The notes below the pieces were generated by a model. The model was not told the origin of the DNA and made no database searches. It saw nothing but the letters and a program-made list of their open reading frames with translations. A stretch of DNA of 61,199 nucleotides, counting the filler, from Sluysia triapertura (taxonomy: Eukaryota), in NCBI GenBank assembly GCA_046118255.1. It is 5 parts of 5 records of this genome, joined end to end, with 100 filler letters (N's around TTAATTAATTAA, not from the genome) between each part and the next. Parts side by side here need not be neighbours in the genome. Positions count along the whole stretch, not along the records: positions 1 to 13,486 come from JBJNIA010037480.1; positions 13,587 to 24,452 come from JBJNIA010192395.1; positions 24,553 to 37,574 come from JBJNIA010065298.1; positions 37,675 to 49,048 come from JBJNIA010185446.1; 1 more part is not named here. One strand, given 5' to 3'. The stretch's first letter is position 1. Every line of letters starts with the position of its first letter. Both the position numbers and the translations under genes were made by a program. Below are positions 1 through 61,199 of the stretch, piece by piece.

Positions 1-58
1 GTGGTAGAGCATTCGCACTGCGCATCGAAGGTCCCGGGTTCGATCCCCGGTCAGTCCA
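1..58 (+). tRNA. 5'-truncated tRNA-like sequence (degenerate tRNA or tRNA-derived SINE head)
   Basis: D-loop remnant GTGGTAGAGC, perfect T-arm CCGGG-TTCGATC-CCCGG (B box), 3' acceptor strand TCAGTCC-A, then a TTTT Pol III terminator. The anticodon arm is irregular (TTCG(C)A/TCGAA around loop CTGCGCA), so the isotype cannot be assigned. Confidence 0.6.
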
Positions 59-80
59 TTTTACGAAGTCTAACAATGTA

Positions 81-4952: not shown

Positions 4953-5775
4953 TGTCAGATTGTCATCACAAGACTACAAAATAATGTAAAGTGTCATAGT
5001 AACATTTTAAAATTATTTAAAACTACTTAAAAATCAATTCAAGTCATAGAAAATGCTTTAAAACTATTTATTAATATTAAAAATCATTTAAAAAATAATT
5101 ATTTTCCAAAAAAAATTTACTTTTCCAAAAAATTAATTTCGCTTCTAAAAATGGAATAGAAGCTTCTAGAATTTTCTAGAACATTCCGTCGCTTTTCTGT
5201 TGCCATTTTGGAAATTCAGTTTGCTTCAATTTGCTGCGATTCGAGGAAATGTGAAATCTTAGTAAACGTTCACAATTTACAGTCATTCAACAATTTGGAA
5301 ATTATCTTCTGGACAACATTAATTCCATTTTTGGTAAATTATATATTTATAGGATTAATTTCAACTTTTGAAGTTGACATTATAAAATACAGGCAAATTT
5401 TATATTATTTTGTAAAATCTTTAAGTTCCCGATATATAGAGGGATAAAATCCACTTAAAATATCTTAGCACTAGATTAAACGCTTTCGGAGCTTTACTCC
5501 CTAAAATAATTATTTTTTGCATTCTTTATCTATTACCATACTCGTTATAATTTTTTATTTTGAATAAGAATTGATATTTTTGAGATAATTAATAAATCAT
5601 TAATGTTATACTCTTGAGCATTTGTAAGACCCTAACCATATAGTATTTGAATTTAGAAAAATTATTAGCTTATATTGTTACAGAAACGTCCTCTTCATGA
5701 CATAAAACGTTTACCGTAACCGGACCCTGCTCAAAACTTATTTTACCTTAGGTTAAGAGTTAGAAAACCATAGCA
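4953..5775 (+). mobile_element. Solo LTR, HSE-LTR family copy A
   Basis: Begins TGTCAGATTGTCATCACA and ends AAAACCATAGCA. Flanks GTTA/CTTA form a near-perfect 4-bp TSD. Colinear with the copies at 30.1, 31.1, 34.3, 35.8 and 40.2 kb. Confidence 0.75.
5158..5187. promoter_or_regulatory. Heat shock element array (6 alternating nGAAn pentamers)
   Basis: aGAAg cTTCt aGAAt tTTCt aGAAc aTTCc. Confidence 0.7.
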
Positions 5776-8700
5776 CTTATTTCGTTAACCTTATGTAACC
5801 ACAAAATTAGATACAAATCTAAAAGTACTTGCTAATACGCAGAGTAACTTATACAAAAAAACATTATTTATTTCAAAATGTAAATTCTGAGAAATCTACT
5901 TATCCTGGAATTTTCAAAAATAGTTAATTCTATAGAAAAATCTTTTAAAATTATTTAAATTGTTAAATAATTTAAAACTTGGAATTCCACAAACGATTCT
6001 AAAGGTTTATTAATATTTTTCTTACTATTTGCTTAACAATTATAAACTTAAACTGGTCCGTCTATAATTTACGGTTTACAACGTGAACTAGACGTATCTA
6101 TAGAATTTGACTAAAAAGAAAATGTTTCCCTACTCTTGAAAATATTGTAAATGGTTCTTTTAACAACTCTTTTTCTCAAACAAGACTTAGTGTATTTCAA
6201 AAAAAATTTTTTTACTGTCTTGTTAAATGATACGTTTTCAAAAATAATTGCTTAGTATATTTCAAAAGTCCTTTTTCACTATCTAAAAATGAAAATTATG
6301 CGTTTTCTAGATTTATAATCGTAGTCGTTTCTGAAAGTCCTTTATGTTAATTCTAATCTATACTGATAAACAAAAACTCAAATAATGTAAGGATTTATTC
6401 AATACAAAGTCGTTAATAAAAGCAAAAATGATTATAATGACACAATTTTCAATTTATAATTTAAAGAAAAAGATTTCTTTAATTATCCTTTAAATAATAT
6501 TTTAGAAATATGTTAATCCAGGCTCAATACTTGGATTATTAAAAATAATTATAGATTTTAAATGAAAGTTTAACGCTAAAGGTATTAGAGCGTTTGGATC
6601 TAACAATTATTAGCTTACTTTAAACAGTAAAATAATTATGATGGATTGGTGCTCGTGGAACGTTTCCGATGTTTAGAGAGAACACTATTGTCGAATAAAA
6701 ATCACAAATCGAATATTCGTCGCGTAATTTAATTTAGCGAATATAACTTTTTGTTAATTGTAACCACTAATTGAATATCCTTTGTACAATTTAATTTAGC
6801 GCATATAGTATCTTTAGTTACTGTACTCCTTTTCTTTTTTGTGTGCTTTTATATGTATATTCCGACGTTAACAATCATCATAAATACATCCAATGAATTT
6901 AATTACCAAGTAAAATTTTAGTTAGTAAATAGATCAATAATAAAATCTTTTTTGATTATCAAATAAAAATGGATGTTTTTATGTTAATAATAAAGTATAT
7001 AATAAAATATTTGTATTAAACAGAAAGATTCAACTATTTATATTATTAAAATAGAATTTAAAAATATTTAATTTGTTTAATATTAAAATAAATTTAATTT
7101 ACCCAAAAAAATACTAATAATACTTTAATAATATATTATTTACAGGTTATTAATTTCGATACAGTAAATAATTATTTGGTAATCTGCTTGAATTATTAAA
7201 AATAAATTATAAATTTAAAATCAAAAACTTTATTGATATAAAGTATTTATTCTATATGACCTTTTAAATGTAACACACACGACAAAAAATATCTTTGGGA
7301 AAATGTTGCTGTTTTGTGTGATGAGTAAAGTGACTTATGCCGAGATATATTAAATGAAGAATCTAAAGTAATATATAGTGTGTAGTTAAGTTAATTGATA
7401 TTTAAGTTAAATGTTGAGTGTATGGTTTAGTGTCGTAAGATTGTATGATAATTGCAGAGTTATCAAGCTTTCACATATAATTGAGTTTAGTTATGGCTTT
7501 TAAAGGTATTATTCTTCAAGATCTTACTTCGATTAACATTAATTTGAAATTTTCCTTATGCATTATTGAACAATAACGTCATAAATGTCATCGTCTAGGT
7601 GTTCTCTAGTACGTTTTACTTTTATCATTTCACTAGTTTTATTTGATAAGAGTTTAACATGGTTATGAATGTAATGCCGGTTCATGTTTCGTCATGAACA
7701 CGGACTTGAATAATTTGGTCACTTATTACGATTTTATATTTTATTCTCAATATTACATAGATTAATTTAATGGAAATGTTAAATTAACTGTAACTTTTTC
7801 CACTGAAATGTATAACGTTAAATTGTAAATTGATTGTGATACAATTATAATTGTCGAAATAGAATGCGTAATTAACTTTGTGGTCAGGATTCGTTGAATA
7901 ACATTTCATAAACGTTTGTGTTTGCATCAGAGTTACCTTGTGTTTACTTTAACATTTAGATCTTCATAATTTACGTTGGCTTTACTATATTAATCCTTAC
8001 AATTAACATTTGCTTTAACTTTTAAATCATAATTAACGTTAGTTTTAACATTTACATCATCATAATTTACGTTTATTAACATTTCAATATCAAAGAAATT
8101 TCTTTTGTTTGGATCTTTTGATTTTTGATTTAATATTGTCAGCCATATTTAATATTTTAATTAATTTTTTGACATACACACATTTGCACCACTAAAATTT
8201 TTCTACACATCTATCCATTAAAATGTGATCTGGCACTGAAGTAACCCATTCATTTATAATTGGATTAGTATTAAATTAATGAAGCTGTAAAGCTCGGATT
8301 TTATGGTNNNNNNNNNNNNNNNNNNNNNNNNNNNNNNNNNNNNNNNNNNNNNNNNNNNNNNNNNNNNNNNNNNNNNNNNNNNNNNNNNNNNNNNNNNNNN
8401 NNNNNNNNNNNNNNNNNNNNNNNNNNNNNNNNNNNNNNNNNNNNNNNNNNNNNNNNNNNNNNNNNNNNNNNNNNATTATTAATGTTATTATATTGATTAA
8501 TACTTTCTTCATCGGTATTCTAAATTACTATTCCAAAAATAAATGTTGGCTTATATTCATTTGTAAGAGATATAATGTTGATTTAGATTGAAATTGAATT
8601 TCTTTATTAACAATAAATTTAAAGTTATAAAGATTCTTAATAAAATTAAAAATATCACCATTACACAAATCTTCATAAAGTATTTTTCAAACATTTGCCA

Positions 8701-9388
8701 CTTTTCAATATAAGCTCGATCACATATGCAGAACTAAGCATATCTTCTACTAAGAAAATAATAATCTAAATCTATTATTTGAGTTTTGTGTCGGCATGGA
8801 GAAATAATACAAATTTCAAATTGATCATCGAGATACGCTTTTGTTTTCTTTATTATTAATTGTTTAATCTCAGATGACTTGTGATGGGTATGTTTTGAAA
8901 TGAAATATAGATTCTTTATAATTACAATGAATTGACTTTTCATGTTTAAAATTCATTTTTAATAATATATAATTTAATAGCGTGAATTAAATTTTTCATT
9001 AAGCACTGCTTTAACTCTGTCTTTATAACATAGTTACCTAAATCGTGCTATTTGTGAGATAATTTTCGTCACTGACTATTTTTATCTAGTAAATGTCGAG
9101 CCAACTCTCTCTAATCAAAATCAGCGTAATATTATTAGTTGGCCAAACATAATGAACAATTTGGCATCAATATATGTGTGAGGATTTTATTTTTACTGGT
9201 TGGTCAATAGAATTTACTATTATTTTCCAAAATTACGATTGATAGTGACTGTCAGTAATGAAAGTTAATAATCCATGCTAATTGAAAAACTCCCATTATT
9301 GACAGTACGCAAAGTGGTAGAAACCACAAAGCATGACTTGATGACTAAAATAATGATAGTGATGGACAATATTATTGAACATTTGTGG

Positions 9389-9401
9389 TAATAATAATAA
9401 T

Positions 9402-9459
<58 letters not shown>
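9389..9459. repeat. (AAT)n microsatellite
   Basis: Direct reading. Similar tracts at about 13646-13715, 14605-14676, 48978-49048 and 52238-52272. Confidence 0.95.
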
Positions 9460-9460
<1 letters not shown>

Positions 9461-9667
9461 AAATGATAAAATAGTAAAATGGAAATAAATAAAAATAAAA
9501 TTAATAAAAATAAGAAGAAAATTAATAAGAAAGTAAAAATAATAATAAAATAACACATAAATCTTACAAATCTTTTAATTCTTTTCTTTCTTTAAAAGCT
9601 TACTTTTTCTAATTATCTTTGATTTTAATTATCTTTTAAGGAACATTAATAAAAGAAAAATAACAAC

Positions 9668-10900
9668 TGTAGTGGCCAACACTTATAAGTCAAATTTTTT
9701 TTTAAACTTAATAACACCCAAATCACAATCATACTCAATATTATTAAATCACAACAACTTACTCACAAAAAACAATATTTAAATCCATCTCACTTCACAC
9801 TGTCGAAATACATTAACTGTATCATCACAAACAACATTCGACATTTATAATATTTAAACAACACGTATATATCAACAATTCGTCCAACACCCTCAATCAA
9901 TCACTTCACATCATACTTTGATAATTAATTCCGAATAATTTATAACGCTCACTCAAAAGTTATTCTATCAAACAAACCACAACCATAATACATAATACAC
10001 AAACCATAAATACATTAACACCATTTAAAAACGTTAACAAGTACCTCAGACATATAAAACATTTACGTTAAAACCTTGAATCAACTACACCAAACCAAAA
10101 CCACTTCATCTACAAATATTCATCATCAACACTTATTTTTAACAACATCACAAATACGCCAAGATTTATTTTGTAATTGTCTTTTAAATTTAATAAACTT
10201 TTAACCTTTTAATAAACCTTTCAAACCATTATATTCAATGTATAAATCTTGTTTTCAATTATAAATCTTCAATAAATCTCAACAAATTATTCTAACATTC
10301 TTCGCTTCAAACACAACTCAAATCATTTCTTTTATCTTCATAAGTAAACATAATAAAGCCTTCAAAAATTCATTATAGTACTATTAAACAGCAACGACAA
10401 CTGAAGTTTTGCATATCACATTACCGTCGCTACTTAAATTAACAACTGTTTTTACTCTTCTTTTTACTTCACGTATGTAAGAAATATGAAATATTGAAAG
10501 AACAGGTCGCGTAATTTCTTTAAAGATAAGATTTATGCATTTTATTTCTAATAACAATGGTAATAATTACAATGTTATTATCGTTATTATTATTACTATT
10601 CTTATTAATTTATCAAACACGAAATTTTTCATTAATGTCGATCAACCTGGTTGCAGCCATCACCAGTGTTGACACTCTATGTTACATTTCTCATTAGAGT
10701 GCCAGCGCTGATGATGGTCAGTTATCAGGCATACTTCATATTAATTTTACTCACCTCATCCAATCGAGACCTAATTTTCCTTATATCATTTTTAAAGGCC
10801 TCGATTGGATAACCAATAATAACGGACTTATAAATAGAAGTTTTCGATACTAAAAATAAAGTTAGAAAATTAACAAATTATTAGTAGTTAAAAGGAACTG
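9668..10900 (+). mobile_element. LTR-like repeat starting TGTAGTGGCCAAC with G-poor (A/C/T-rich) strand
   Basis: Same terminus at 12772(-), 15731(+), 39273(-), 46400(-), with a variant at 43955(-). Strong AC/GT strand skew. The 3' boundary is approximate. Confidence 0.55.
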
Positions 10901-10926
10901 AATCAAAAAAATAGCGATACAATATT

Positions 10927-12394
10927 TTGAAAAAATTAAGACTTCACTCTATTCATATGCATCAACAGCACCACAGATTTTTGGTTTGGAAACATAAACA
11001 AAATGCCATGTGGTATCACTCGTTGACTACGTTCATATCTATTATTGATATACAATCGTCGAAAATTAAACGTGATGCACCATTATATAATCAATCCCAG
11101 CAAAGAATGGATCTTCTTTTTAGTATTATGGTATAACATTTATATGATGTAAAGTTGTTCGGATACATGATGAATATGAACTACTTGATTAATGAGTATT
11201 TGTCACTATATATGAAACCGTCTTTAAACCTCGATCTGGCGTTTAATAACAATAAATTCCACCAATTTATGTAATAGACATTCATTTTTCTTAGTGAATT
11301 ATCATACATTTTCTCTCGAGCTCGACAAAATTCTACATGATATCAATCGATACCTAAACAAATATCTCGATCGCCCATCAATTTGTCTCTCGACGTTTAC
11401 TGGTGAGAATAAATATTTCCTTGAGATGCGTAGTATTATCTTATGTCATACAAAAGATGAAAGTATGCAAAACGAATTCATATGTCAGCCATAACTATTC
11501 GATGTTTATAACATTCTCAATTCTAAAATTACCACCAAGAAAATTTTAGCAATAACCAATCCATATGAAGCAGATGTCATCACTACGAAAGAAAATAATC
11601 CTGTAATTAATAAATTGTATATGTTAGATTCATTCTATATAAAGGACTCAATGCTATCTCTCGCAATGTGCCTTTAAGAGAAAATTGCCGAGAACCAGGA
11701 ATATCATGATATCCATTTTATTATTATATATAATTTTATCAATATTGTAGATTTCAAGTACAAACTGGATTCTTATGGATTGCAATGGAATGTGACTAAA
11801 TATATAAATCAGAATTGGAGAATCTTTATAGGTTCAATGTCAGGATTTGAAATATTAATGATGTTTAGTAAAATTATTTTGTATCAATGTCATTTTTCCG
11901 ATTTTTATTCTAATAAATGTTGTATTAGTTTTATTAAGTTTCATATTAAAGCAAAATTCATTAGTGAAAATATTAAATCTGAAAGAAATGATCTACCAAG
12001 AGTGACAATGAGAAACTTTAAGCATAAGAAAAATAAACTCTATTTATTAATTGATCAAATATCACAAGAATACTTTTGTTTACTTTTGATAACAACCACA
12101 AATAGCTTTAGTATTTTCCGAAATTTCCCTCTTCACTTCTACGTAAATACCGATAATTTAAGTGATTTAGAAAATATCAGATCATTAAATAATATGTTAG
12201 TTAAGAATAAATTATGTGAAATATTTAAATTACAAGGATGCTTTAAATTCTTCATTACTAGATTAACGAAACCCCTGATTTACATACGACAAAAAGCTAT
12301 TTGTATAGATGACGCAATAAAAATAAAAACTATATTCCTTTATAATAACTATTTCTTTAACCGTTCTAACAATCATAACACCATAACAACGTAG
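10927..12394 (+). pseudogene. Decayed long orphan ORF
   Basis: ORFs 11294-11494 and 11780-12394 are in one frame separated by only two TAA stops. The upstream ORF 10927-11136 is one frameshift away. No family recognised. Confidence 0.35.
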
Positions 12395-12399
12395 TTTAA

Positions 12400-12772
12400 G
12401 ATGTTAAAAAATTAATGAGGAATGTCTCAATAAGATAAAAACGTAATTAAAGATGTTAAAGAAATTCCGTTTTGATTGTAATGAAGTTTTACCAAACTTT
12501 TAAAATGTAAGTTTAATGTTTTTCAATGATATTAATTGTTGAATGTTGAACACTGTGAGCTTGAAATGTTTTGAATAAACTTTTGAAGTATACATTCAAT
12601 GATTTTAGATGTTGAGTAAAATTTTAATGTTATACAATTATGAATTTAAATGTTTTAAAATGTAAAGGAATTTTAAAAAACCTGAAAAAGTGAAATGTGA
12701 AATATTGAGAAATGTGTTACTAAATGTCTGTAATAATGATTTAAATTTTGAATGAAAATGTTGGCCACCAAA
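12400..12772 (-). mobile_element. TGTRGTGGCCAAC-family terminus fragment
   Basis: Minus strand starts TTTGGTGGCCAAC followed by G-poor sequence similar to the 15731 copy. Confidence 0.5.
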
Positions 12773-12829
12773 ATAGTTGAATGTTTTTCAAAATTATGCG
12801 AAGTTGTCATATTCAACGATCCCAAATAT

Positions 12830-13300
12830 CCCGAATATGAACATCGTCATATTGCCATACTAAATGATCATATTAAAGTGTACCGAAGTACAATGTTCTA
12901 AACTTCTTTGAATTATTCGACAAGCGTACTGTTTAGTAGAGTGAATAATTATATCTGTAGATAGATCAATTATAAAATTTAGATGTTCAGTTTATACACA
13001 TTTGACACAATTTTGAACAACACGATTTCCGTTTTGATCTTTTGCCCAATTGATAACATAATTTATTAGGAATATTAATTTGTATTGCCCTAGAAAAAAA
13101 GCTGTCTCCATAAATTTGAAATATTATTGCCTAATGTTTGTATTTGTTCCGGTGTATCCAAATTAAAAAACCATTGAATGATATATTTACCAAATTACAA
13201 CAAAGCAGTATAATCTCTCGAATTAGTACTTATACTTCTGACTTATACTCGCGTCTTGAAGTTTCTGCTGAATAAATCTTGTGTAGTGTGCTGCCTACCT
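12830..13300 (-). pseudogene. PUM: Intronless Pumilio (PUF repeat) pseudogene fragment
   Basis: Minus-strand translation gives RFIQQKLQDAS, FGKYIIQWFF..DTPEQ, KDQNGNRVVQNCVKCV*TEHLNFIID and STKQYACRIIQRSLEHC. These match PUF repeats (SRFIQ, GNYVIQKFF, KDQNGNHVVQKC, YGCRVIQRILEHC) with stops, frameshifts and deletions. Confidence 0.8.
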
Positions 13301-13486
13301 CAATTCTTACATACATAACTTAAATATCCATTTTACCTCATATTAACACATTAAATCAAATAAATGATAATCACTTAATAAAGTATACTAATCAGTCTCA
13401 CTCAATTAGTCAATATCGTCCCATACAAATATATTATTTTAGTATAATTTTTATACTTCTTTCTTTTGGTTACATTTCTTTTTAGT

Positions 13487-27759: not shown

Positions 27760-30106
27760 TTAAAGTATAGTGCATAACGTTATTTATTTATTTTGTGCAT
27801 TGCACATAAATATTCCATTCATGAGCTGAAAAAGGTGNNNNNNNNNNNNNNNNNNNNNNNNNNNNNNNNNNNNNNNNNNNNNNNNNNNNNNNNNNNNNNN
27901 NNNNNNNNNNNNNNNNNNNNNNNNNNNNNNNNNNNNNNNNNNNNNNNNNNNNNNNNNNNNNNNNNNNNNNNNNNNTGTATTAATTAAGATAATTTATCAG
28001 TTTTAAATTAAAAAATTAATATTAATTTAATTAAATTATTTTGGTTTACTTTTGTGACTGTTTTGACATTTTAATTTTTCAAAGTTTTGTTTTCACATAA
28101 AAATTGTTTTTGTTTTTGTTTACTTTTTACAATACTACAAAAACACGCAGAATTTAGTGATAATAAATAAAATAATTTTTATAATTATAAATTAATAAAA
28201 TAATTTAAATATTATGATTATTCCTTGGTAAATATTTTATTATATAAATTGTTTCTGATGGTAGAAATGACAATGGACAATTTTATTGTTAAAATAAGTT
28301 AACATCCTATTTTGAAAATAAATTAAAAACTTTATTTTAATTATTTTGGATTTTGAAAAATTTCTAAACTAACGTAAGTATTTTTAAATATTTTTAAATA
28401 TAATATTATAAATTTTGTTTTAATAAATAAAGCTCAAGTCAAATACGCATATAAAAACATATTGAAAAATGCGCAAAACTAACAACTGCAATAAACACAA
28501 AAACTTTTTTGACACAATTTGGCTGCACAATCCTTGTCCACACAAATTAATCAGAAATTTACTCTTTTGACAATTCTGGTGAAAGCAATCAATATTTTCT
28601 TGGACGTCTATAAAATAATTTACGTTAGTCTGTTTCATTAGGATTTGATGATAATCTGTATCATAGTAAAATACACGCAAAATATTATTTTTGTAAAGAT
28701 TTTTAGACATTTTTAATAGGTTCAACGTAAATCTGCTTATTTAAAATTAACTAACAGTTAATTGTTGTAATATCCGTATTTGTAATTATAATGCTGTACC
28801 GTACCTATTTATACGTGTTTCAAATTTGCGAATATATAAATTATTTAAGATAACTTATTAGATAACCATTAATTTCCATAATTTCAAATTCATAAAATCA
28901 ACCGCACAGTGAAGCTTTATTCAGAATATAACTCATTTGTAAAATCATTTGATATAAATCCTTATCATAGGATTTTCGTAAACTATTGTAATAACATAAA
29001 ATTTTTATTTTAGCAAACGTTTCACAGTTAGCAAGCACTGAGGCTTTTTTTTCTTATTCTAATAAAACCTTTCCAATTGCAAAAAAATCCAACGGCTAGT
29101 TCTAACCAGTAAGCCTAGAACGTTGGTGGATTCACGTATATAAGTTGACTTTTATTTTCTTGCGTAGGTTATTTAAAAGAACCTCATCAACATTATAAAT
29201 ACTTAACTAAGTTTGTTATAAATTAACTTCAAAAAATAAATTAATTAATAAATAAAAATCATTTTTTAAATTTCATTACGAAACTTATGACGATTAAAAT
29301 ATTTATATTGTAATTACTTGCCTTAATTTAAATAACGAATTAATTTTGGTAATGTTTATTTTTAATATTTTATAATCAATAGAAAATTGAATGTTTGTTT
29401 ACACTTAATTAAATGCATGTTATTATTTTAAATAATAATAGTAATAATAATATATTAATAATAATAATAAAGTACAGTGTATTATAATTTAATAATCGGA
29501 AATTACTCATTGTCTTATGAATCATTTTGTAAAATGAGGATGAAAAATGTCCAATCAGATTTATTTTAATTGCATAAATTTTGATGAGCAAAATATTCAT
29601 TAAAAAATTAATTATTCCAAACAATTAATTTCACGTCTGTTTTTATTTAATTTAATGTAATATATAAATTTCATAATTTTTTAGTTTGTGTAACATTTGA
29701 TTTTTTAAATATTATGAATTAATTTGAATTTAATTTGTTACTTTTTTAAAAATTTTATAATTCATTGTTAAATGATTTAAAATTATAAAACATTTTATAA
29801 ATTATGAATAAATTGTAATATTTATGAATATAATATTTATTTTTTTTTTCAAATATAATCATTGAAAGCCCCTAGTTTAAGTTTAATTTAAAAATATTTT
29901 TTAATATTCGTTAAAATATAATTTGCAAACAAATTTTTACTTTATTTCATTTATTGTTATTTATTTGCTATTTAAACTTCTTAATAATACATGTTTATCT
30001 CAACATGTAATTTTTATGTTTTGGTATATATCATCAAAACAAAACGTGGGTTTAAAAAAAGTATTAGGTAAAAATTAAAAATATAAATTTAAATATTTAT
30101 TGAATA

Positions 30107-30933
30107 TGCTGTGGTTTTGTTAACACTTAACCTACAAAATATTTTTTTAGCACGGTCCGATTAGAATGAGGTATAACATAACTTCGATATAATGTTAGTG
30201 AAGCTTTTATGCACTTATATAATTGTCTATCTTTCTTATCTGAGGGTCTGAATTTAATTATTCTTTCTATAATATACCATTTTTATAATTATTCTCCATG
30301 AAACAAAAATTTCACAAATTCTTATATTAAAATACAAGGCATTAAAACTTCTACTATATTAATTATAATTCTATTATATTAATAATAACACTAAAGACAA
30401 AGCAGAAAAAGTGATAATAATGCAAATTTAGAATTAAAGACCACCAGGGTCTTTAATTATTTAATTGAATAAATATAAATTTAAGTCGATTTTAACCATC
30501 AATATATCGGGAATTAAATAGGTATTTAAAAATGATTTTAAGTCTATTTTATGACAATTAGTATCACCTTAATAAAAATAACTTATAAAATGTATGGGTT
30601 CTGATCGAAAGTCATGTTACCAAAAATGTTGAAATAAACTTGCTAGATCGTAAATCACCACAATCAAAAAACCAAATAATGAAATGGCCGTCGAATGATA
30701 ATGTCAAAAAATAGCAAAAGTTTGACAATATGGCGAATGTAAAAACGAATTGATGCTAGTTTATAAACTAGTCATCAGCCAATAGGAATCGATGGAATGT
30801 TCTATTTTAGAAACGACTTCTTTTTTAGTAAATAAATTTCTTTTTTGGAAAATAAATTTTTTTTGTAAAGTAAGATTTTTAAATGATTTTAAAAGATTGT
30901 GATGAAATTTTAAATGATTTTAGCAACCTAACA
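30107..30933 (-). mobile_element. Solo LTR, HSE-LTR family copy C
   Basis: Minus strand TGTTAGGTTGC...AAAACCACAGCA with a perfect 4-bp TSD AATA (30103-30106 / 30934-30937). HSE is reduced to 2 pentamers. ATTGG, TATAAA and CGCCAT motifs are retained. Confidence 0.85.
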
Positions 30934-31069
30934 AATATATCATTTCAAGTACTAAAACAGTGTCTAATAATTTAATTATTGCCTTCACTATTAGACTTCT
31001 GGATTAATGTCTATGATAGAATCCAGATAATTCAATAATCTGGACTCCAATTGGGACCACTAAGCTATT

Positions 31070-31790
31070 AAAACCATTAAATTAAGTCATTTTCGCAAAA
31101 AGAAAATAGTGTTTTCTAAAATAGAAATCGAAAATCCTAGAATTTTCGAGAATAGTTAGTAATTTTTATTGGTTGGTTACATCAGTTCAGTTATAAACAC
31201 AATTTAATTTAATCATTACAATTTTAAAGAAAGGAGAGATACAATATTATGATATTATTTAAAAATATATATACCAAAAAATTAGCAAGTTTTGCTTTAA
31301 TTATATGGACGATTGAGTTCAAATATACTTAAAATCTCGTTTGTAAATTTATTTAGTGCCCGATTCTTTGAGGAATAAAATCAGAACTAAAATATTATAG
31401 ATAACGAATTCTTGTTTAATTTCAAAATATGTTACTATTTTATGCTTCTGTCTGTTAATTCTTGGTGTTCTTTGTTACATATCAACTTTTATATGTGATA
31501 ATAAACACTCACGATAATTGTGTTATTTTGATTAAATTGTTGTAGATTCGTGATGAAGTGCGACAGAATTGTAACATTAATTAAAAAATCCATAAGCTAT
31601 TTTAATTAATTTTTGCACATTAATTTTACTACGTAAGACCCTCTCTGCAAATTATTAAGTGCTGAAAAGATAAAAGATAAAAAATGGAGATTTGATAATC
31701 ATAGTTACAGAAACGCCAACTTTAGGTCATAAGTCGTTTACTGTAAAAATTTATTTTGTCGTGGGTCAAAATTTAAGAAAACCACATTAC
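31070..31790 (+). mobile_element. Degenerate LTR, HSE-LTR family copy F
   Basis: cGAAa aTCCt aGAAt tTTCg aGAAt at about 31129-31153, then ATTGG and TATAAA. The 3' part (GTAAGACCCT, ACAGAAACG, AAGAAAAACCACA) aligns with copy A. Confidence 0.55.
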
Positions 31791-32129
31791 TATAAACGAA
31801 ACCTAATTAATTATACAATTTTTGAATTGGCACATTTTAGACTACCTTAATATGTATATATTACATTAATTCTTTGTTAATTTTTGTTACCTTTTAATAC
31901 TAATTGATGATCCTGGATTTAAGATGAATTAGTGTGAAAAAATATAAAAATGAAACATTGAATAATTGTACTTTTTAACTAGACAAAAATATATTTATAC
32001 TTAGATTTTTGTAGAAATTGTGAAGTATTGTCGAAATTCATTTAAGAAAAAAATCATAATAATTTATGATTTTATAATTTATAAGGTTTTACAAAAATTT
32101 AATATTTTTAGAAATTATTGAATATTAAC

Positions 32130-33242
32130 CTGTACTGTAAAAAATGGCAACCAGCAAATAGTAAAGCAACCCATAATTACACCTAATGTCTTAACAGCTT
32201 TTGCTTCGGCATTTTTTGAATCACTCGTTTTACGGCTTGGATTATTAGGAAAATCATCTACCGAATTATCATTACTAATATTTGTATTTGATCTGGTTAC
32301 TGTTATAGTTTTAGGAAATTTTAACTTATTATAATCACTTTGATTTATTGAAATATCGCTTTCGCCTGGGTTACTTAATTTGTTTGTATTATTTTGAATT
32401 ATATTTGACAACTTGGGTGAAATTGGTTTAAGAAACTTTTGATCCTTATGAACCATATTTTTAGCCAACATAAATATGCGTCCATACAAAACAAGCATAA
32501 TAATAAGTGGTAGATAAAATGCAATAAATGTTGCATATATCTGGTATCCTAAATCATTACTATAATCACATGTGTACTTTTTTTGAGGTGGTCGCCAACC
32601 AAAAAGTGGAGGAATACTAATTAAAGCTGATGCTGTCCAAGCAACCATAATCATAATTAGCATATACTTTTTAGTACGAAACAACATATATTTAAATGGT
32701 TGTGTTATAACAAAATATCGATCAATGGAAATAGCACACAAATTTAATATAGACGAAGTACACAAAAGTACATCAAATAAAATAAATCCATCACAAATTA
32801 ATTGATTAAATTTCCAGTAACCATAAATTTGATAAACACTGGCGATTGGAATTACAACCACACCTACTAATAAATCTGTAAATGCTAGGTTAATAATCAA
32901 CATATTATAAGGAGTTCTCAGTCGTTTTACTAGTATGAAAGCTAGAATCATCAAACCGTTACCTAAACAAGTTCCAAATGCTAAAATTGTTAGCATAAAA
33001 CATAGAAATATAAATAGAATTGGATGAATTGGTTTTAAGAAACATATTTCAGGCATTAAATCACTTTTATTCACAAGTAATAATGCTGTATGACACACAT
33101 ATTGTCTATTAGAACTTAAATTTTTTTGATTATATTCTAAATATAACTGCCATAATTTATAATCGATTGGTTTATCAAATTTGATTGATTCTAGAAATAA
33201 GTCAGCAAACGTTTGGTTATTTCCAACATTAAAATCCATCAC
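32130..33242 (-). CDS. HTR7: 5-HT7-like serotonin receptor (class A aminergic GPCR), first coding exon TM1-TM6; TM7 exon not found in the window
   Basis: GN (TM1), LAFTD (TM2), DVLLCTSSILNLCAISIDRY (amine-binding Asp and DRY), ISIPPLFGW, YQIYATFIAFYLPL and KAVKTLGVIMGCFTICWLPFF. A donor CAG|GTTAAT lies at 32130/32129 and there is no NPxxY in the ORF. Confidence 0.9.
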
Positions 33243-34310
33243 ATTTATTTAATAAAATTTATAAATACATAACACATTTGAATTTCACATTGAACGTTAC
33301 AAATTATCTAGCATTGAAAGTAGTTATACAGTAAAAATAAATGATTTGTATATCTTAAAATTTATTGGTCAGTTAATAATGACATTTATGCATTCATTTT
33401 ATTCTGTTATATTTTTGAGAAATCGTATTGCCTAGTTAGTACTTTCAATAAATATAATAAATTTAAAATATAATAATTAATATGATCAGAATTGAGATAT
33501 ATACTGATTAAAATAATTTAATCACACAAAGAAAATGATGATAAAAGAAAGAGAAATCTTCATATAATAATGCGAATGAACATTAAAATAATGAATTGTA
33601 AGCAAAATAAATACACAGTGAAAACAACCAATTTACTAATTTCACATCTATTTTGTAATTTTTTCTTACCTCTTAAAAGCGGAGGTAATACAAGAATAAT
33701 TTGTTTAATTAAATATCCAGTATTAAATATATAAGAAATTGAAATATAGATAGAAATTAACTGTAATAAAAATATTTGGTTTTTTTATTACGTGAAATTT
33801 ATATTATTCAAAATGAAAGTAATGTATTCAACTTGTGAGAATTAATTATTAAATTATAAATTAATTTTGTATGTAAAAATGCAATAAAATAATAATAAGT
33901 TAATTTATACTGCGCTAATATCTAATGTAAAATAAATACTCAAAACCTCTAAATAATTCATTCATTATAATATTTATGAAATAGAAAAAAATTTGCTTTT
34001 TTTCAAGTATTTCTTTATCTTCCAGTAATTCTCTGATAACTTCTCGTACACTTTTGAAACTTAAAGGTATTTAATTTATCACTGTGGATTCTGTATAAAT
34101 TGCTCTTCTTTAATAATATCTATTATGGTTTCCAATTTTTCATCACTTCCAAAATTAAATATACATTTTCAAATTAATCAAAAAAATCTTAAATCTTTAA
34201 AATTATCATAAAAATAAAACTAAAATATCTTAATAATTTTAAATGAAATATTGTATAGAAATCAAAATGTAAAAGAAAGCAAACAAAATAAAATGAAACA
34301 CAGAAACACT

Positions 34311-34770
34311 TGCTGGGTGTTTTTCTTAACTTAAAAACCTAAGCTACAGCAAAATAATTAATTATTATGAGTCCGTTTATAGTATACGACTTACTAATGG
34401 CGTACCTGTAAAAATTACATGAAAGCAATTATCAAAATTAATCGTATAAAAAGATGCTTCGCCTTAACTTAACAATAATGGGCAAAAATCGTTGTTTTAC
34501 AACGGATAACTTAAAAAACTAAGTAAGACCAACGCTGGCTTAATAGAGATTCAAATTAAAATTAAGTAAATAATGATGGTATAAGAACGTACTCTTTCTT
34601 ATATTTAACAAGTTCTAATATCACGACTGTTAAAATTTAAAAAAATAATATCAAAATCGACGTAAATTTTATATTAATTACATTTTATTTCGTGAGTTAA
34701 AAATTAGTTATGAACTTAATTTAGATTTTTGTTTATAATTCAAAAGGCTCAAAAATTAATTTTATTATTT
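34311..34770 (-). mobile_element. 5'-truncated LTR, HSE-LTR family copy E
   Basis: 3' end AAGAAAAACACCCAGCA aligns with the ends of copies C and D. The HSE-bearing 5' part is absent. Confidence 0.55.
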
Positions 34771-35761
34771 TTTATTTTTTATTATTAATAATTTCGTAAA
34801 AATAAATAAATGATAATTAATAACACTAAAAAATAATAACGATATAATATGAATAATATTTAGATTGTAATTAGGACCTAGCCAAAGACTTTGTCCTGTG
34901 ATAATGATTTTGTAATTGACCTTAATGGCCAAGTAAAGATTCGAGATTTTAGATTTTAATTTGATTTTGTGATTGGCTTTAATGACCAACCGTGAAAAGA
35001 GTATTTTAAGTATATTTTATAACTCTACGGAAAGTTAACACTTATATAAACCAAACTTATGAATTTTAATAAATCAAAATCTTCGATAATAATTGTCCAA
35101 AATCGATTTCCAAATGTGATTAATGCTGCTGTAGATGTGTTACCCCTCTAATCGGAGACGCGGGGATCACACAATTATTGTGAGAAGAAATGGTTGATGG
35201 AGTTGTTGGAATTAAATAATACCACCAATTCGCTCGTAAATAAAAGGAGTATTGATTGCCTTGTTCTTCTTCTTTATAATGACGGTGGATTTGATGATGA
35301 TGGCGATCTTCTTTATAATTTAATAGTGATTGTAAATGACGTTCTGATTTTAAAGATGGCTGCTGTTTTTTTAAAAAATGGTCGTTTCTTTATTCGTCAC
35401 TGTCTTTATATACTCATAAAGACATTTTAAAATTTTATTCATTTAAATAAACTCCTTTCTAGAAGTTTCTTTTGTAATGTTTTTTAATTTATAATAATAA
35501 TAATTCTAATTTTAATATCATTAAATTAATAATTTTTTGAAATAATATAAATTTTAATAATTATTTATAATATTTTGTAATTTAAAAAATTATAAAAACA
35601 CAAAATGTAAAATGCAAAATTATGTACACCTTCACACACTTAATCAGCAAGTCAAAAAGAATAATGACAGTTTCAAGAAAACAAAAAATTATGACTTCAT
35701 TAAAATTTAATTGAAGAACTATTTGTGAACAAACTCAAAAAACACAATCCAACGAACAACT

Positions 35762-36275
35762 CCACAATTCCCTAAAATCATATAAAATTTCATTATAACA
35801 CTGAAATTATTTTAAAATCTTTTAAAATCATTTAAAATATTATTTTCAAAAAAAGAAAATTAGCATCTAAAAACAGAATAGAACATTCTAGAACATTCCA
35901 ACGTTTATAAACTAGTATATAAACTAGCATTAGCTTTGTGAAATTCGCCATTTTGATTTATATAATTTTTGCTCCATCGCCATTTTGAAGTTTTTTGTGG
36001 AACTTATCAAAAAACTTTATCAAAATTGACAGTATATTCGATATCTGGACAGCATTCACCAATCTACAATCATTCAAAATTCCATGTTTCGGTAATTTTT
36101 ATTTTTTAAGGTGAATTTCAACTCACAGAGTTGAAATTATAAAATAAACTAAAAATTTGAATTATTTTAATTATTAGACAAGATATATTCAGATTTTAAT
36201 TTCACTTAAAATTTCGTAGTTATAAAATTATACGCTCTCGAGCTTTAATTTTTAAAATATTATTCTATATCAATT
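35762..36275 (+). mobile_element. Truncated LTR, HSE-LTR family copy B
   Basis: aGAAc aTTCt aGAAc aTTCc (35880-35899), TATATAAA and two CGCCATTTTG motifs. Colinear with copy A until about 36275. Confidence 0.7.
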
Positions 36276-37674
36276 GCCTATGAATTGGATAATGTAAGTC
36301 ACTATGATTTTATACTCCCTAACACTAGTATCCATATACTGTTCGTCCCAGATTATGATCTATCATTTATTGAGGTTTGGATTTTGCGCTACAATGAAAT
36401 TCATGAAACTATTGGATTTTGGCCGGAATATAGAATATCTGACTTATTAGTACCTATTTTGGATAAACCGGATGTTATCACTATTTCAAACCCAGCTACC
36501 ACTACTTTGAGTATAATAAATAAGTTATCTTATCAAACTAGGTAAGAATTTAAGTTTACATAATCAAAATTACTCACAAATTAATCTAACCATCTACCCC
36601 ATAATAAATCACTACTATGTTATATTTAGTTATTACGTTTTAACTTCCTTTTTTTCGTTACGTCAATAATACAAGTTGTATTTCAAATTGATAAATTTTA
36701 TTTGTTCCTTAGGAATAGGAACCATCTTTTTATTAAGGCTTAAACTATAAGTAGGATATTAAAGTATGAGCGGAGGTATTTCTTATTTACTGACCATGTG
36801 TGATGGCTGTCAACTATCCACTTTCGATCGCAAAAGGAGTGATACTGATTAACTGACATTTTATTGTTAATATGTATCATATTTTTACTTTAAATTTTAA
36901 ATTTAATTTATCTCACTTCCATAACACTTGCATTATATGTTGTGATTTTTGTTATGAGATTGAATTAAGATTCTTATTCTTAACGTAAGTTCTCTGTGAT
37001 ATTGGACTTACTTACTGAAGGGCCAGCACATAGATTTGCAGCTTTTAAGAGAGAAACGACAAGAATTTTGAGGTTTTAATTTTAATTTTGATGCTACTTT
37101 TTTCTTAGTTTTAGATAGTTATTTCTGATTCTACTTGCGATAATTTTATTGTGAAACTTTTCTAGTAAGACATTTGCTATACTTTAAGTAACAATCGTAA
37201 TAACGCTTTATAAAATATCAAATCAAGTTTTACTTCTTAATACTTAATTTAATACCAAAAGAATAAACCTTTTTGAAATTATGCATTAATAAATAATAAA
37301 ATTATAAATGTACAAAAGTATGTCAATTTGTAATAAGAGAATTAGATGTTTAAAATCAAATTATGAATATATAATAATATTTTAATCAAAAGTAATCTAT
37401 TAATTTATCAAAACAATTTTTAATTTTAACTCTATAAATAAATTTATGGTATTTCGGGATACTATTAATTTTAGCAATTAATATTTAACTTCTTAAAATA
37501 TTTAATAAAGGAATTTTATACAGTGATATTTTAATAATATTAATTTTAACAATTAATATCTAACTATTCGAAGTNNNNNNNNNNNNNNNNNNNNNNNNNN
37601 NNNNNNNNNNNNNNNNNNTTAATTAATTAANNNNNNNNNNNNNNNNNNNNNNNNNNNNNNNNNNNNNNNNNNNN

Positions 37675-37843
37675 AATAACCACCACTGTCTCTCTTGATA
37701 TAAATCCTTAAACTTCTATCATCAGATAACGTGATAACTGCATCTTCTCTAAGTATAATGTAAGCCACATTAATATCGCATTCAAATTTTTCAAATTTGG
37801 ATAAGAGATCTGCCTTTCTTACTTTATCTGAGCCTGTAGTCAT
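37675..37843 (-). CDS. WDFY2: WD repeat and FYVE domain protein (WDFY1/2) N-terminal coding segment, truncated by the linker gap
   Basis: RKADLLSKFEKFECDINVAYIILREDAVITLSDDRSLRIYIKRDSGGY resembles the WDFY N-terminus (RKPILL..EG...VN.A.[27 protein letters not shown]). Confidence 0.8.
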
Positions 37844-37899
37844 TATATCATAATCACTGAGGAATTTTATTTTTCGTATCATTCTGACTGTCTCTTTTT

Positions 37900-39273
37900 C
37901 GACACTAATAAAATTGTTAATTAAGATCGCTGCTGGTTTATAATTGTTTTCTTTTGATATAATTCTTGTAGATTAAACTTTTCACTATTATTTGGCTGCT
38001 GTCTGATTTTCTTTCTATGTTTTTGAAATATTTTGTCAGTTATTTCTTATAATTTCTTTTTGTTTTTGGCTCTCCAATTTTTTATCAATATGGCTACCGG
38101 CTAATGAATTTGTTTTATTCCTTAGTCATTCCCAATAGTGAACTGGATTTGCTGATGAGTGGTATGCCCAATCAGAATGTGTTTCATTACATGAACAAGA
38201 TTTTGCATTCTGATTGGGTAGTGTGAGAATTGATTAGAATGTACACACTCATCAGCGATGTATGACTAACAGTTATGTAGGTATAAAAATTATGTAATAC
38301 CTTTACAGTTATTACGTCATAGTAAATTAATGACGTGATGCTGGTGAATAATGATAGAAGTACAAGTGGTGGTAAATAGGGAATGATATAATTCGTAATA
38401 ATAAGAATAATAATAATGGCGTGAATTATAATACGAATAATAACAATAATAATACTTATAATAATATTGTAGTAATAGGAATAATAATAATGATAAAATG
38501 TTTATAATAAGAATAATAAAGAATAATAATAATAGTGATAATAAAAATGATAAGAATAAAATTGGGAAATGATGATAGTACTGAGGTTAAAATTGCAATG
38601 CATAAATTCTTGAACCTTGTTTACACGATCTTTCTATCTTTGTAATTAAGCTTTCTTCTTGACATATTAAAAGGAAGTGGAATGAAAGGTGTTGGACCTA
38701 CTTTGTCAACGTTGATTAATGCTCTGTGATTTAAAGAGAAAGTCTATGGATTAGATTTGGAGTGGTTATTTGGAAGATTGAAGTTAGACTGATTTTATAA
38801 TGTTTATTGCGAAATAATTTTATATATGTTATGATTAAGGGTGATGAGTATGTTTGTGTAAGGTGGGTTTTGAATGTTAATATTGCTTGTTGTTTTAGGT
38901 GCGATGGTCGTTATTTCTGAAATGGTTATAAGTATGATTTGTATATCCTTGTGTTTATGATTTTTGGGGTTTATGTGATGGTTGTGAGTTGGTTGGTGAA
39001 GTGTTTGATGAATTGATGTTGTGAATCTCGATAAGGTGTTTAGTTGGTGAGTGTTTTGAGTTGTTGAAATGAATGTGAGAGTTTATTGAGTTGGAAATGT
39101 TGAGCTTTGAATTAATTTATTGTGAAATGTAATTTGGTGAAGTGTTGCGGTTGTATTTTGTTATTTTATGAAATGAGTTGAGTGGTGTTTTATGTTTGAA
39201 GGGTGTGGTGAGAAATGTTATTTTATGTGGTGAATTTTTATTTTATTATTGAGTTAAGGGGTTGGCCACTACA
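37900..39273 (-). mobile_element. TGTAGTGGCCAAC-family LTR-like repeat, nested into a glycoprotein relic
   Basis: Terminus at 39273, about 1 kb of G-poor strand, (TAT)-rich block and twin-CCAAT hairpin. Same layout as the 9668 copy. Confidence 0.6.
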
Positions 39274-39274
39274 A

Positions 39275-39620
39275 TAGTAATATAGATTCTTCTGTGTCGC
39301 AGCTAGTCTGATCAATCTTACAAAAAGAACGCGACATCATAGTGCCTTTTTCTACATCGAACCTTTCATTAAAAGATTTTAGACTTACTACGTACATTTC
39401 TTGAGCAACAACATTATTATATATTATACCTTCATATTATAAGGAAACTCTTTCACATATTCCGTCTAGTAATACATTTCCTGCAGTCCTTACATTATAA
39501 ATTATCTTTTCATTAACTTGCATTTTCAACTTATCTCCCTTATTTAAACTTATAAAACCGGTTTCAAAAGCATCCCTGCAATTATTGGGTGATATGGGAT
39601 ATAACTTAAACTTATAACTT
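39275..39620 (-). pseudogene. Chuvirus-type class III glycoprotein (env-like) fragment G1
   Basis: PISPNNCRDAFETGFISL...VRTAGNVLLDGICERVSL*YEGIIYNNVVAQEMYVVSL...FCKIDQTSCDTEESIL, with a single in-frame stop. Homologous to G2 and G3. Confidence 0.55.
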
Positions 39621-39639
39621 AAAAATTCAAAATATGACA

Positions 39640-40210
39640 CTTAAACTTATTAAAATTCACAATTCATAAGCTTAAACATAATGGAAACTTAACGTGATCA
39701 AAAACCTGTAACTTACACTTACAGCTTAAAAATACAAAATTAAACGACTTAAACTTAATTTTAGCTTGCTTAAAAATCGAAGTAACAATAAAATTCAAAC
39801 TTATAACCTTAAACTTATCAAAATCTTGTCGAAATCTTGTAGAAAACAGCTTATATAATATAAATCGATCCAAAAACTTGTAGAAAATCAAACTTCAGAC
39901 TTAAATATTCACCTAAAACTATCAAAAATTCAAATTTTAATAACGAATTATAATGTAAATTGTAAAAACGTAGCTTAAAAATGGTCAAAACTTAAAAATT
40001 CAATATTTAACTTCATTTAATGCTTTGTAAATACAATCAAACTTAAAAATTCAATGCAAAAATGCTAAAAAAAGTCGTTAAAACTCAAATTACGTCGAAA
40101 ATTTACACTATTTACACTATCAAAACTTAAACATTTAAAACTTAACTTCGCTTACTATTGTCAAAATGCAGCTTAATCTCAAAAATTCAATGCTAATTAC
40201 ACTTATGTTG
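39640..40210 (-). repeat. Repeat-rich leader of the HSE-LTR element internal region
   Basis: Many degenerate AAACTTAA/AAAATTCAA units between the PBS and G1. Confidence 0.5.
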
Positions 40211-40211
40211 G

Positions 40212-40229
40212 GTCCAAATTCTGGCGCCA
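40212..40229 (-). promoter_or_regulatory. Primer-binding-site-like sequence
   Basis: TGGCGCCAGAATTTGGAC lies 5 nt after the LTR ...ACAGCA end. The primer tRNA is not identified. Confidence 0.6.
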
Positions 40230-40234
40230 AATTT

Positions 40235-40998
40235 TGCTGTGGTTTTTCTTAATGCTAAACCTGCGGCAAAATAAAATTGAGCAGCGTCCTACAACTAATA
40301 GTTGGCACCTCTGCAGCTTATAATTAAAAAAATCATACTTAAAAAAATCTTACTCTTAAACAATTAACAAAAATCAAATTTATTATTAAAATTTATTATA
40401 TTATTATAATATACTTTATAATAAAAATTTTCTCACAAATCTTTGATTTTAAATTACAATTTTAATGAAAAAATCCTCTCATTATAACGAGGATATAAAA
40501 ATTAATTAAATGAAATATTTTGAGTAGATTTTAATATTTTTATCTTCTCCAAAAAGATAAAAATACCCTACAAAAAACAATTTACTGATAGCATGGAAAA
40601 ATAGAATATCCAGTAAATCCGATTTAATGTGATTGTTTCAAATACCCACAATGAAACTGCAACAAAGAGGTGAATTGATAAATCACCTGATAAATTGATA
40701 TAAAAATGACGATAAGCAGCTAACTAATAAAATAGCGATTTTCATTAAACTGATGCTAGTTTATATACTAATCATCAGCCAATGAAAATCGATGGAATGT
40801 TCTAGAACATTCTAGAAGCTTCTATTCTATTTATAGAAGTAAATTTTCTTTTTTAGAATTTCTATTTTCTTTTTTGGAAAATAATTTTCTTTTTTGAAAA
40901 ATAAATGATTTTTGGATATTTGGAAACTAAAATATTTTTTAAGTGAAAATTTAATAATATTTTTCATAATTTTAGGGGGTTGTGATGGCAACCTAACA
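40235..40998 (-). mobile_element. 5' LTR, HSE-LTR family copy D
   Basis: TGTTAGGTTGCCATCACA...AAAAACCACAGCA followed by the PBS. Contains a 6-pentamer HSE, ATTGG and TATATAAA. Confidence 0.85.
40794..40823. promoter_or_regulatory. Heat shock element array (6 perfect pentamers)
   Basis: gGAAt gTTCt aGAAc aTTCt aGAAg cTTCt, about 25 bp upstream of TATATAAA on the minus strand. Confidence 0.75.
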
Positions 40999-41070: not shown

Positions 41071-41700
41071 ATGTTGGCACAATCTATGACTAAAATTACG
41101 ATAATTTTAGGATTACCTATTTTGAAAACATAAAACTCGGAGTAAAATGGATGTAGAAAAGTGGCCTGATGCATGTCATAATTAATTTGTTAAACAATAT
41201 GGTCAAATTTATCATGAATGAGGATATATTTATATTAAAGCAAATGAATGTGCAGTCTCCAGTAGAAACATTTCATTGATTAATTATCCAACAATTGAAG
41301 AATATCTTGATATTGCGCCAAGGAATTGTTATGGTACTTTTCAGACACATAAAATCAAGTCAAAACAAGAATAATTCTGAAAGCAAAACCAGGTATTATA
41401 ATACAAAAAGAATATTTCTAGTAGGAAGTTTGGCATGTGAATATGGATAAATTTTGGCATAAATATAATAAGATTCGACAAGCATTGGTTATTGATACTT
41501 ATACCATTGAAATTAAGAATAGTAAAGTTGAATTGGACCCGAATAGGAAGGTCATGTTTAAATTTATCAAAGATAATTTACTATGACATGTGTGGAAGAG
41601 CTGTCATTTCAAGAGAGTTTAGAGAAAAATCGATTCGTTGTATAAAACTTTGGTTGGGAGTAGTTTATGACATTTGAAGGGACATAGATTTGTTGAGTAA
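41071..41700 (+). pseudogene. Chuvirus-type glycoprotein N-terminal fragment G2
   Basis: Signal-like MLAQSMTKITIILGLP, then QYGQIYHE*GYIYIKANECAVS..ISLINYPTIEEYLDIAPRNCYGTFQTH...KIRQALVIDTYTIEI. DNA aligns with 49674-50175. Confidence 0.5.
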
Positions 41701-49673: not shown

Positions 49674-49839
49674 ATGTTGGCACAATTTATGACTATAATC
49701 ACAATAATTTTAGGATTACCGGCTTCACAACCTATTAAGGAAAATAATGAATGTAGAAAAATGTCCTGATGCGAATTCAGATAAATTTATTAAACAATAT
49801 GATCAAATCTATTAAGAGGGAAGATATATTTATACTAAA

Positions 49840-49882
<43 letters not shown>

Positions 49883-60344: not shown

Positions 60345-61199
60345 GTATAGATAATCAATTTATTTTGCAAATTCCGACAGTGAAATTAAAAAATTCATTC
60401 GAGTAATTTATTAACAATTAATATTAAATAGTAAGTCTGTTTAATAAGTTTAAACTCGTCAGTAAGAGGAATAACAAAATATCACTAAAATTTTATCGAA
60501 CTTTAAACTGGCCCTAAATCAGTTATAAACTTCGGGCCAGTTATAAACTCATTTTTAACTGGCCTTTGTATTAAACATTTGTATTAACATTTTGATAAAT
60601 TAACCTTCTTAGTATTTATTTGTGAGATTTAATAAAGTACTGGAAAAATAAAATAGTCTTACTAGACCCTCAAACTAAATATTGCATAAATGTATTTTAC
60701 ATTTCTTTAGTTATTCATCATTCTTGTAGGTACGCCTCCATAAGCCGTATACTACAAGCGGATCCATTAGAAGAAGAAAATTTTATTTTGCTGTTAGGTT
60801 TTTTTAAAGAAAAATCACAGCAGTCTGTTGTCTCATTTACAAAATGTCGTACTATGCCTTGGGTGATGTGCAACTAGATTTTCGAACATCGCCTGGTTTC
60901 GATTTTACTTGAACCATTTAACTTTGGAACAAATTGATGAATCACATATTACAGAACATTGATTAGTTCGCATATGCAAAGTCAATAAACCTGTAAAAGA
61001 ATTCCAAATTATAGAACTCGTAAAATTGTATCGAACAAATTAGATGTGATTAAAACAAGTGTGAATGTAATCTAAGGTAAATTATCATTAAAAGTTTAAC
61101 AAATTGAAAACAATAATATTTTCAATTGAAAATTAGGAATGTGTAATACAGCAATGAAATTAGTGCGTTTAATTAGTATTGTTAAATTAGTATTGTTTA

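Follow-up and report, generated by a model that had tools for sequence, protein, structure and literature searches.

The window analysed here, a 61,199-nt stretch of DNA from Sluysia triapertura made up of five joined contigs (~24% G+C; 60.5 kb excluding filler), contains six copies of retrotransposon long terminal repeats (LTRs) that carry, or carried, an array of heat shock elements (HSEs) in the position of a promoter. We suggest that these copies descend from a selfish, heat-inducible LTR promoter that is now scattered as decaying solo LTRs, and we consider this reading likely. The first-pass annotation had described six copies of one LTR, spread over three different contigs, that serve as a portable heat-shock promoter. 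The contig separators bear out the spread, and the functional label may fairly be applied by analogy with the LTRs of the flatworm Macrostomum lignano; the copies themselves, listed below with a seventh LTR 3' end that lies beyond the six first reported (G, ending at 60822), are of more than one type.

4953..5775, plus strand: LTR copy A, solo, 823 bp, TG…CA, flanks GTTA/CTTA (target-site duplication, TSD, 3/4)
30107..30933, minus strand: LTR copy C, solo, 827 bp, TG…CA, perfect 4-bp TSD
31040..31788, plus strand: LTR copy F, diverged, no clear TG start, degenerate 3' end
34311..35636, minus strand: LTR copy E, 1,326 bp, complete solo representing a longer, second type, TG…CA, perfect 4-bp TSD
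35762..36275, plus strand: LTR copy B, partial, no TG start, 3' part missing
40235..40998, minus strand: LTR copy D, 5' LTR of a decayed element, 764 bp, TG…CA, no TSD
60680..60822, plus strand: fragment G, 3' end of another LTR, closest to E, 5' end not found, HSE array not found nearby

The repeats are genuine LTRs. TG…CA termini are present in four of the six copies (A, C, D and E), B and F being without a clear TG start, and 4-bp TSDs are perfect in C and E and match at three of four positions in A, with none for B and F and none expected for D. The 5' end of E was set by searching for the TSD (that 6-mer is expected ~0.03 times per 300 bp), and its 3' terminus is confirmed by a joint at 34311 in contigs of run X1, a single run that is possibly the assembly's source sample and not independent support. 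DNA transposons of the Ginger type and miniature inverted-repeat transposable elements (MITEs) have 4-bp TSDs, TGT ends and long terminal inverted repeats. Such repeats are not present in A, C, D and E, where only 6–14 of 30 terminal bases are complementary, and their absence argues against an element of either kind.

Five nucleotides behind D, at 40218..40229 (minus strand), lies a primer-binding-site-like 12-mer with 11 of 12 bases complementary to the 3' end of tRNA-Lys(UUU), as represented by the mosquito entry in supplement 1 of PMC13524379 and not by the host's own tRNA. Within two mismatches, the limit used for primer sites in that study (<=2), the 12-mer is unique in the window apart from its own palindromic core. 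Because this site adjoins it, we take D to be a 5' LTR, with A, C and E solo LTRs and B and F partial. We read the copies as Ty3/gypsy LTRs, mostly solo, presumably through LTR-LTR recombination. A second TGGCGCC, at 52411, was not taken as a primer site; it seems to fall within a gag-like stretch (weak match, E 0.036). Neither paired LTRs around gag-pol nor a polypurine tract was found within these short contigs. The C/F and E/B pairs each stand head to head, ~110–130 bp apart, with their promoters facing outward, and one contig of the run joins a B-like core straight to the end of E, which hints that the elements insert into or beside one another.

A scan of the whole window returned five perfect alternating nGAAn arrays of at least three units, and all five fall within LTR copies:

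5158..5187, plus strand: HSE in A, 6 perfect units
40794..40823, minus strand: HSE in D, 6 perfect units
35880..35899, plus strand: HSE in B, 4 perfect units
31139..31153, plus strand: HSE in F, 3 perfect units (31129–31153 gives 5 slots with one mismatch)
35456..35470, minus strand: HSE in E, 3 perfect units

The LTR copies make up 8.3% of non-N bases, a comparison that is partly circular, since the copies were noticed by their arrays and the 5' end of E was set afterwards. Against 200 order-3 Markov simulations, arrays of at least 4 units stand out (7 overlapping starts observed, mean 0.015 expected), as do 6-unit arrays (2 observed, 0 in the 200 simulations), whereas 3-unit arrays alone are near chance (mean 0.94 expected). 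The array ends 181 nt from the LTR 5' end in E and 138–235 nt from it in A–D, and in C it has decayed to 2 units. The unit counts of the first-pass annotation thus stand for A, B, C and D and need qualifying for F; its statement that E lost the HSE through truncation does not hold, E being complete and bearing the array listed above. Taken together, these observations support a non-random placement of the HSE array in promoter position.

The sequence that follows the array is consistent with a promoter core, preserved to different degrees in the different copies:

30730..30804, minus strand: C promoter core, with the 2-unit HSE remnant, ATTGG at 30783, TATAAA at 30765 and CCAT motif at 30734
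31168 and 31192, plus strand: ATTGG and TATAAA of F, without a CCAT motif
35410, minus strand: TATAAA of E, with CCAT motifs at 35382 and 35360, without ATTGG
35906 and 35918, plus strand: TATAAA motifs of B, with two CGCCATTTT motifs, without ATTGG
40783 and 40765, minus strand: ATTGG and TATAAA of D, with a mutated CCAT motif at 40736

ATTGG follows the HSE in C, D and F only, and TATAAA follows it in B, C, D, E and F, so that a canonical HSE of at least 3 units stands upstream of a TATA box in B, D, E and F. In A, the CCAT motif lies 15 nt past the 6-unit HSE, with no ATTGG or TATAAA between them. The succession of HSE, ATTGG, TATA box and CCAT motif first proposed for the fuller copies is therefore found in part, with elements missing from A, B, E and F and one mutated in D. 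The distance from TATAAA to the CCAT motif is 29 nt in B, 31 in C, 29 in D and 28 in E, which places the motif where a start site would be expected, ~30 nt past TATA; its role is putative, and it resembles a YY1 site.

Local alignments scored against 30 real background segments group A, B, C and D as one family (mutual z 5.6–9.8), with F aligning weakly to the others (z 1.8–4.1) and full-length extended E showing no whole-length alignment to them (z <=1.8). When A, C, D, E, F and G are compared pairwise, 13 of the 15 comparisons show shared sequence over the last 130 nt (<=4/1000 background segments score at least as high), and the two that fail are C-G and F-G. With the HSE removed, the first 300 nt link all six pairs among A–D (0/500 background segments) and link E to D (0/500) and to A (2/500), not to C (69/500), while most pairs involving F are not linked. 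Because the 3' ends and some 5' parts are shared and the whole lengths are not, we assign the copies to two or three old families that share an ancestor, A–D forming one, F being distant and E a separate type, in place of the single LTR first described. Global pairwise identities (0.66–0.75), which the A+T content inflates, played no part in defining the families.

Within this diverged background the array is well kept in some pairs. A and D share 29 of 30 HSE bases, against a median of 0.57 over 25 other 30-mer windows (P ~0.008 after 26 windows, with a 70% background); the B-D pair also ranks the HSE 30-mer first, and C-D and B-C place it near the top. To this extent the supposed conservation of the HSE relative to the rest of the LTR is borne out; the remaining pairs are considered below. 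In a post-hoc test, the GAA-nn-TTC spacer was of five kinds among 10 cases and the TTC-nn-GAA spacer was TA in 6 of 7, a pattern that would be expected from selected contacts of heat shock factor (HSF) and not from a plain tandem repeat.

The cores are also abundant, as the first-pass annotation had supposed. Contigs of run X1 were aligned at 80% likeness to 29500–37570, the stretch covering C, F, E and B, and 13,900 of 6,252,256 records aligned. Exact contigs gave a depth of 11–23, and bins of the neighbouring host exon 19–32. Summed depth, which does not equal copy number and is inflated by short overlapping contigs, reached 62,668 in the C core bin versus 809 in the C body, with single-site values, among the rows listed, of 220,131 in the C core, 74,332 beside the E HSE, 50,027 beside the B HSE and 1,067,907 in the 3' part of E; it was far lower in F (109–1,297) and in the B body (515). 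A firm minimum is given by distinct contigs: 204 diverge from C at the decayed array and then carry in-phase HSE units, making an array longer than that of C, and 209 diverge from C downstream with an intact CCAT motif. Related cores thus appear to number at least hundreds and probably thousands, with the core seemingly kept better than the LTR body, and there is a chance that their abundance is on the scale of Helitrons. More high-copy repeats lie beside E and B, at 33820–34089 and 36250–37060 (summed depth 5,691–12,411 per bin).

Outside this genome, a 26-letter pattern of the C/D core had 0 matches in viral and metagenome contigs, and a general 5-unit HSE pattern occurred at 117 metagenome and 12 viral loci. 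Apart from the HSE itself, these 129 loci showed no likeness to the LTRs of the window beyond 5 short matches of 23–46 nt. Dense HSE arrays ~600 bp downstream of a gypsy integrase match were seen in three metagenome contigs of another eukaryote (L006:3001, L009:1105 and L077:164), the first of which has a chromodomain in its pol; these are further cases of HSEs within a probable LTR.

An indication of the element that owned these LTRs comes from the DNA downstream of the D primer site:

39281..39637, minus strand: broken piece of a gB-type envelope (PF24664) with one in-frame stop, on the strand of the D primer site and ~600 bp downstream of it

This 120-residue piece matches PF24664 at E 1.5e-11 with X at the stop and has 17 relatives at E <=0.001. 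Among 10 relatives scanned, all contain PF24664; in 4 a protease follows it, and 2 of those 4 also contain reverse transcriptase (RT), RNase H and integrase. Broken gB-type envelope remnants also occur at 41141–41556 and 49744–50169 (both plus strand), and because three separate remnants fall within 61 kb, envelope-bearing Ty3/gypsy elements were abundant in this genome. From copy D alone, we lean, on balance, towards an LTR owner from the gB-type envelope-bearing lineage known from flatworms. A decayed Ty3/gypsy pol (RT, RNase H, integrase) followed by a second RNase H-integrase stretch occupies 52382–57671 (plus strand), and its integrase is 50–54% identical to env-pol polyproteins; no tie could be made between this remnant at 52–58 kb and G. 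Viral contigs scanned with a related env-pol protein yielded no relative.

Several of the envelope relatives have features of their own. P0126 shows a weak Bcl-2 match (E 0.00096) ahead of env, and P0138, a polyprotein of 4,844 residues, combines several protease domains with ankyrin repeats and a C2H2 finger; their cargo recalls the anti-apoptotic cargo of Burro1 (PMC13465017). P0136 (HBK71150.1), an env-pol polyprotein, is filed under a Flavobacteriaceae metagenome-assembled genome and is probably animal DNA in a bacterial bin.

The U3 (unique 3') region of these LTRs combines A-tracts, the HSE array at 130–235 nt from the 5' end, an optional CCAAT box, a TATA box and, at the predicted start, the YY1-like CCAT motif, each in a putative promoter role. 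We propose that HSF, once activated by heat or proteotoxic stress, would occupy the array and fire the adjacent TATA promoter, producing a burst of element transcription, a step that we infer from Macrostomum and from ONSEN. Selection on active master elements would preserve the array across families that have diverged, and solo copies, once inserted, would decay. The loss of the array in C and of the TATA box in A, both solos, fits selection acting on the active element and not on the copies in the host.

Several points weigh against this interpretation. The favoured promoter role is putative, and an HSE is not sufficient, because 2 of 6 HSE-bearing Macrostomum families were not heat-induced (PMC12801592). 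Zero copies have all four motifs intact. Just 2 of 15 copy pairs have the HSE 30-mer as their best-matching window, and in 11 of 15 it is unexceptional. A search behind D found no gag, pol or 3' LTR, and because of this, and because the window has env remnants in three places, LTR and envelope may be neighbours by chance. Finally, the six Schmidtea errantiviruses catalogued in PMC13524379 are entered with primer type 'none', so the Lys site could not be matched to them.

The setting of the copies bears on what they might do to host genes. One host exon encodes a receptor:

32115..33248, minus strand: host exon, serotonin-receptor-like G-protein-coupled receptor (GPCR), first ATG at 33239, ~1.07 kb downstream of E, which has the same orientation

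Its top named relative is GCR023 of Schmidtea mediterranea (52% identity), and the next-ranked relatives are receptors from other flatworms; for this reason we assign the host to the flatworms, where it would probably be a triclad other than S. mediterranea. Copy C presumably sits within the intron that follows this exon. A probable first exon of another host gene lies at 37676–37843 (minus strand), 2.4 kb downstream of D; we take it to resemble WDFY2, a likeness for which Pfam, Atlas and PDB searches, with 0 matches, gave no support. Further away, a MAP-kinase-like reading frame at 3–518 (plus strand; Pkinase E 4.7e-30), intronless across 171 residues and with a stop inside the domain, is possibly an exon or a pseudogene. 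An inverted pair of ~250 bp with 69% identity at 25374–26614, perhaps the ends of a DNA transposon, lies close to a weak HSE-like run at 25184. An Rfam search of the whole window gave 0 matches.

Host exaptation, in which the HSEs of solo LTRs make neighbouring genes heat-responsive as Caenorhabditis Helitrons do, is in our view unlikely. E faces the serotonin-receptor-like gene and D the probable host exon, but the nearness of two copies is anecdotal in a repeat-dense window, and Macrostomum had just two solo LTRs <2 kb from mildly induced genes (PMC12801592). Solo A retains six perfect units despite its lost TATA box, and the E and C cores have very high coverage; the C array and the D CCAT motif, however, have decayed. 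There is a precedent in C. elegans, where 61.4% of HSEs (11,527 of 18,766) lie in Helitrons (PMC6927752), set against which planarian LTR elements are silenced by PIWI-interacting RNAs (PMC8532177).

Use of the HSF sites outside heat shock, for example in wounding, stem-cell or germ-line programmes or other proteotoxic stress, seems slightly less probable still. Of 6 Macrostomum families with canonical multi-unit HSEs beside a TATA box, 4 could be induced by heat (PMC12801592), although the sequence of a canonical array cannot reveal its activating signal and planarian LTR elements do show tissue-specific activation in differentiation (PMC8532177).

We think it very improbable that the array is a neutral, functionless 10-bp tandem palindrome produced by slippage. 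The unit number ranges from 2 to 6, other short tandem repeats occur upstream in the LTRs and the 11 pairs noted above show no extra conservation, all of which slippage could explain; against it, the changes are concentrated in spacer bases not read by HSF (a post-hoc observation), the position before TATA is fixed in two LTR types, and A and D match as closely as described. Least probable of all is sponging of HSF1 by the LTR copies, for which three arrays of at least 4 units in 60.5 kb (~50 per Mb; 95% Poisson range for that count 0.6–8.8), the deep core coverage and the human satellite III loci that gather HSF1 in nuclear stress bodies (PMC9032817) might be cited, but the array density is biased upward because the window was picked for this feature, silenced chromatin may hide the sites, and the words 'sponge' and 'titrat' do not occur in the Helitron paper (PMC6927752).

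A selfish, heat-inducible LTR promoter would not be new in its basic mechanism, as HSE-bearing LTRs are known in plants, fungi and one flatworm. In the literature covered, we found nothing on HSEs in triclad LTRs or on HSE-carrying envelope elements, and an earlier description is possible. A comparative Schmidtea genome paper (PMC11410931) contains 0 occurrences of 'HSF' or 'heat shock', and passages of that paper and of a planarian genome paper (bioRxiv 10.64898/2025.12.11.693146) do not mention such LTRs or elements. Because planarians keep pluripotent stem cells as adults and often multiply by fission, new insertions of a stress-switched retroelement could be passed on directly. The prediction lends itself to tests in planarian genomes already assembled to chromosome scale and in heat-shock RNA data.

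Among known systems, the Caenorhabditis Helitrons were cited as a precedent in the first-pass annotation. They are alike in that one transposon family may hold most of the strong HSEs, as with the five of five perfect arrays in this window; they differ in being DNA transposons for which HSF-1 binding and effects on neighbouring genes were shown (PMC6927752), features that are putative here. HSE-bearing LTR retrotransposons, already known in a flatworm, are nearer. ONSEN/COPIA78, COPIA37, TERESTRA and ROMANIAT5 of the Brassicaceae likewise have heat-responsive elements in their LTRs, which grew by duplication and were retained by some lineages but lost by others (PMC5059998). These, however, are Ty1/copia retrotransposons of plants with unrelated sequence, and the likeness is convergent. 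In Cryptococcus, the LTRs of the heat-mobilised elements TCN3 and TCN12 carry putative HSEs; the host is a fungus, and the HSEs are, as here, putative (PMC12810828).

With respect to the presumed owner, flatworm errantiviruses have only gB-type env and a GAG-ENV-POL order, and S. mediterranea contains Smed_errantivirus_1-6 (PMC13524379). The stretch headed by D resembles them in that a gB-type env fragment lies beyond the primer site of a 5' LTR and has env-pol polyproteins among its relatives; by eye, the fragment also resembles the Smed_errantivirus_1 env row (PMC13524379). The stretch differs in that env is reduced to a broken piece and that neither gag nor pol nor a 3' LTR was found behind D.

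The nearest parallel is Macrostomum, where 4 of 6 HSE-bearing LTR families rose ~250-fold on heat, HSE mutation abolished reporter induction, and the HSE-bearing Ty3/gypsy families comprise Mlig-id115 (Mag), id36 and id55 (CsRN1) and id38 (Gmr1/Osvaldo) (PMC12801592). Both systems have a flatworm host, canonical nGAAn arrays upstream of an LTR TATA box and several diverged families. In Macrostomum, however, HSEs occur in 6 of 137 families of 4–20 copies each, and no envelope gene is reported for the HSE-bearing families in the part covered, whereas here all LTR types in the window bar G have HSEs and the cores are very abundant; heat induction was shown there (PMC12801592) and is putative here, and our host is probably a triclad. 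If our interpretation is correct, HSE capture by LTR retrotransposons would be a feature of triclads as well as of Macrostomum and, probably, of elements that carry an envelope, at a copy number far above that reported per family in Macrostomum.

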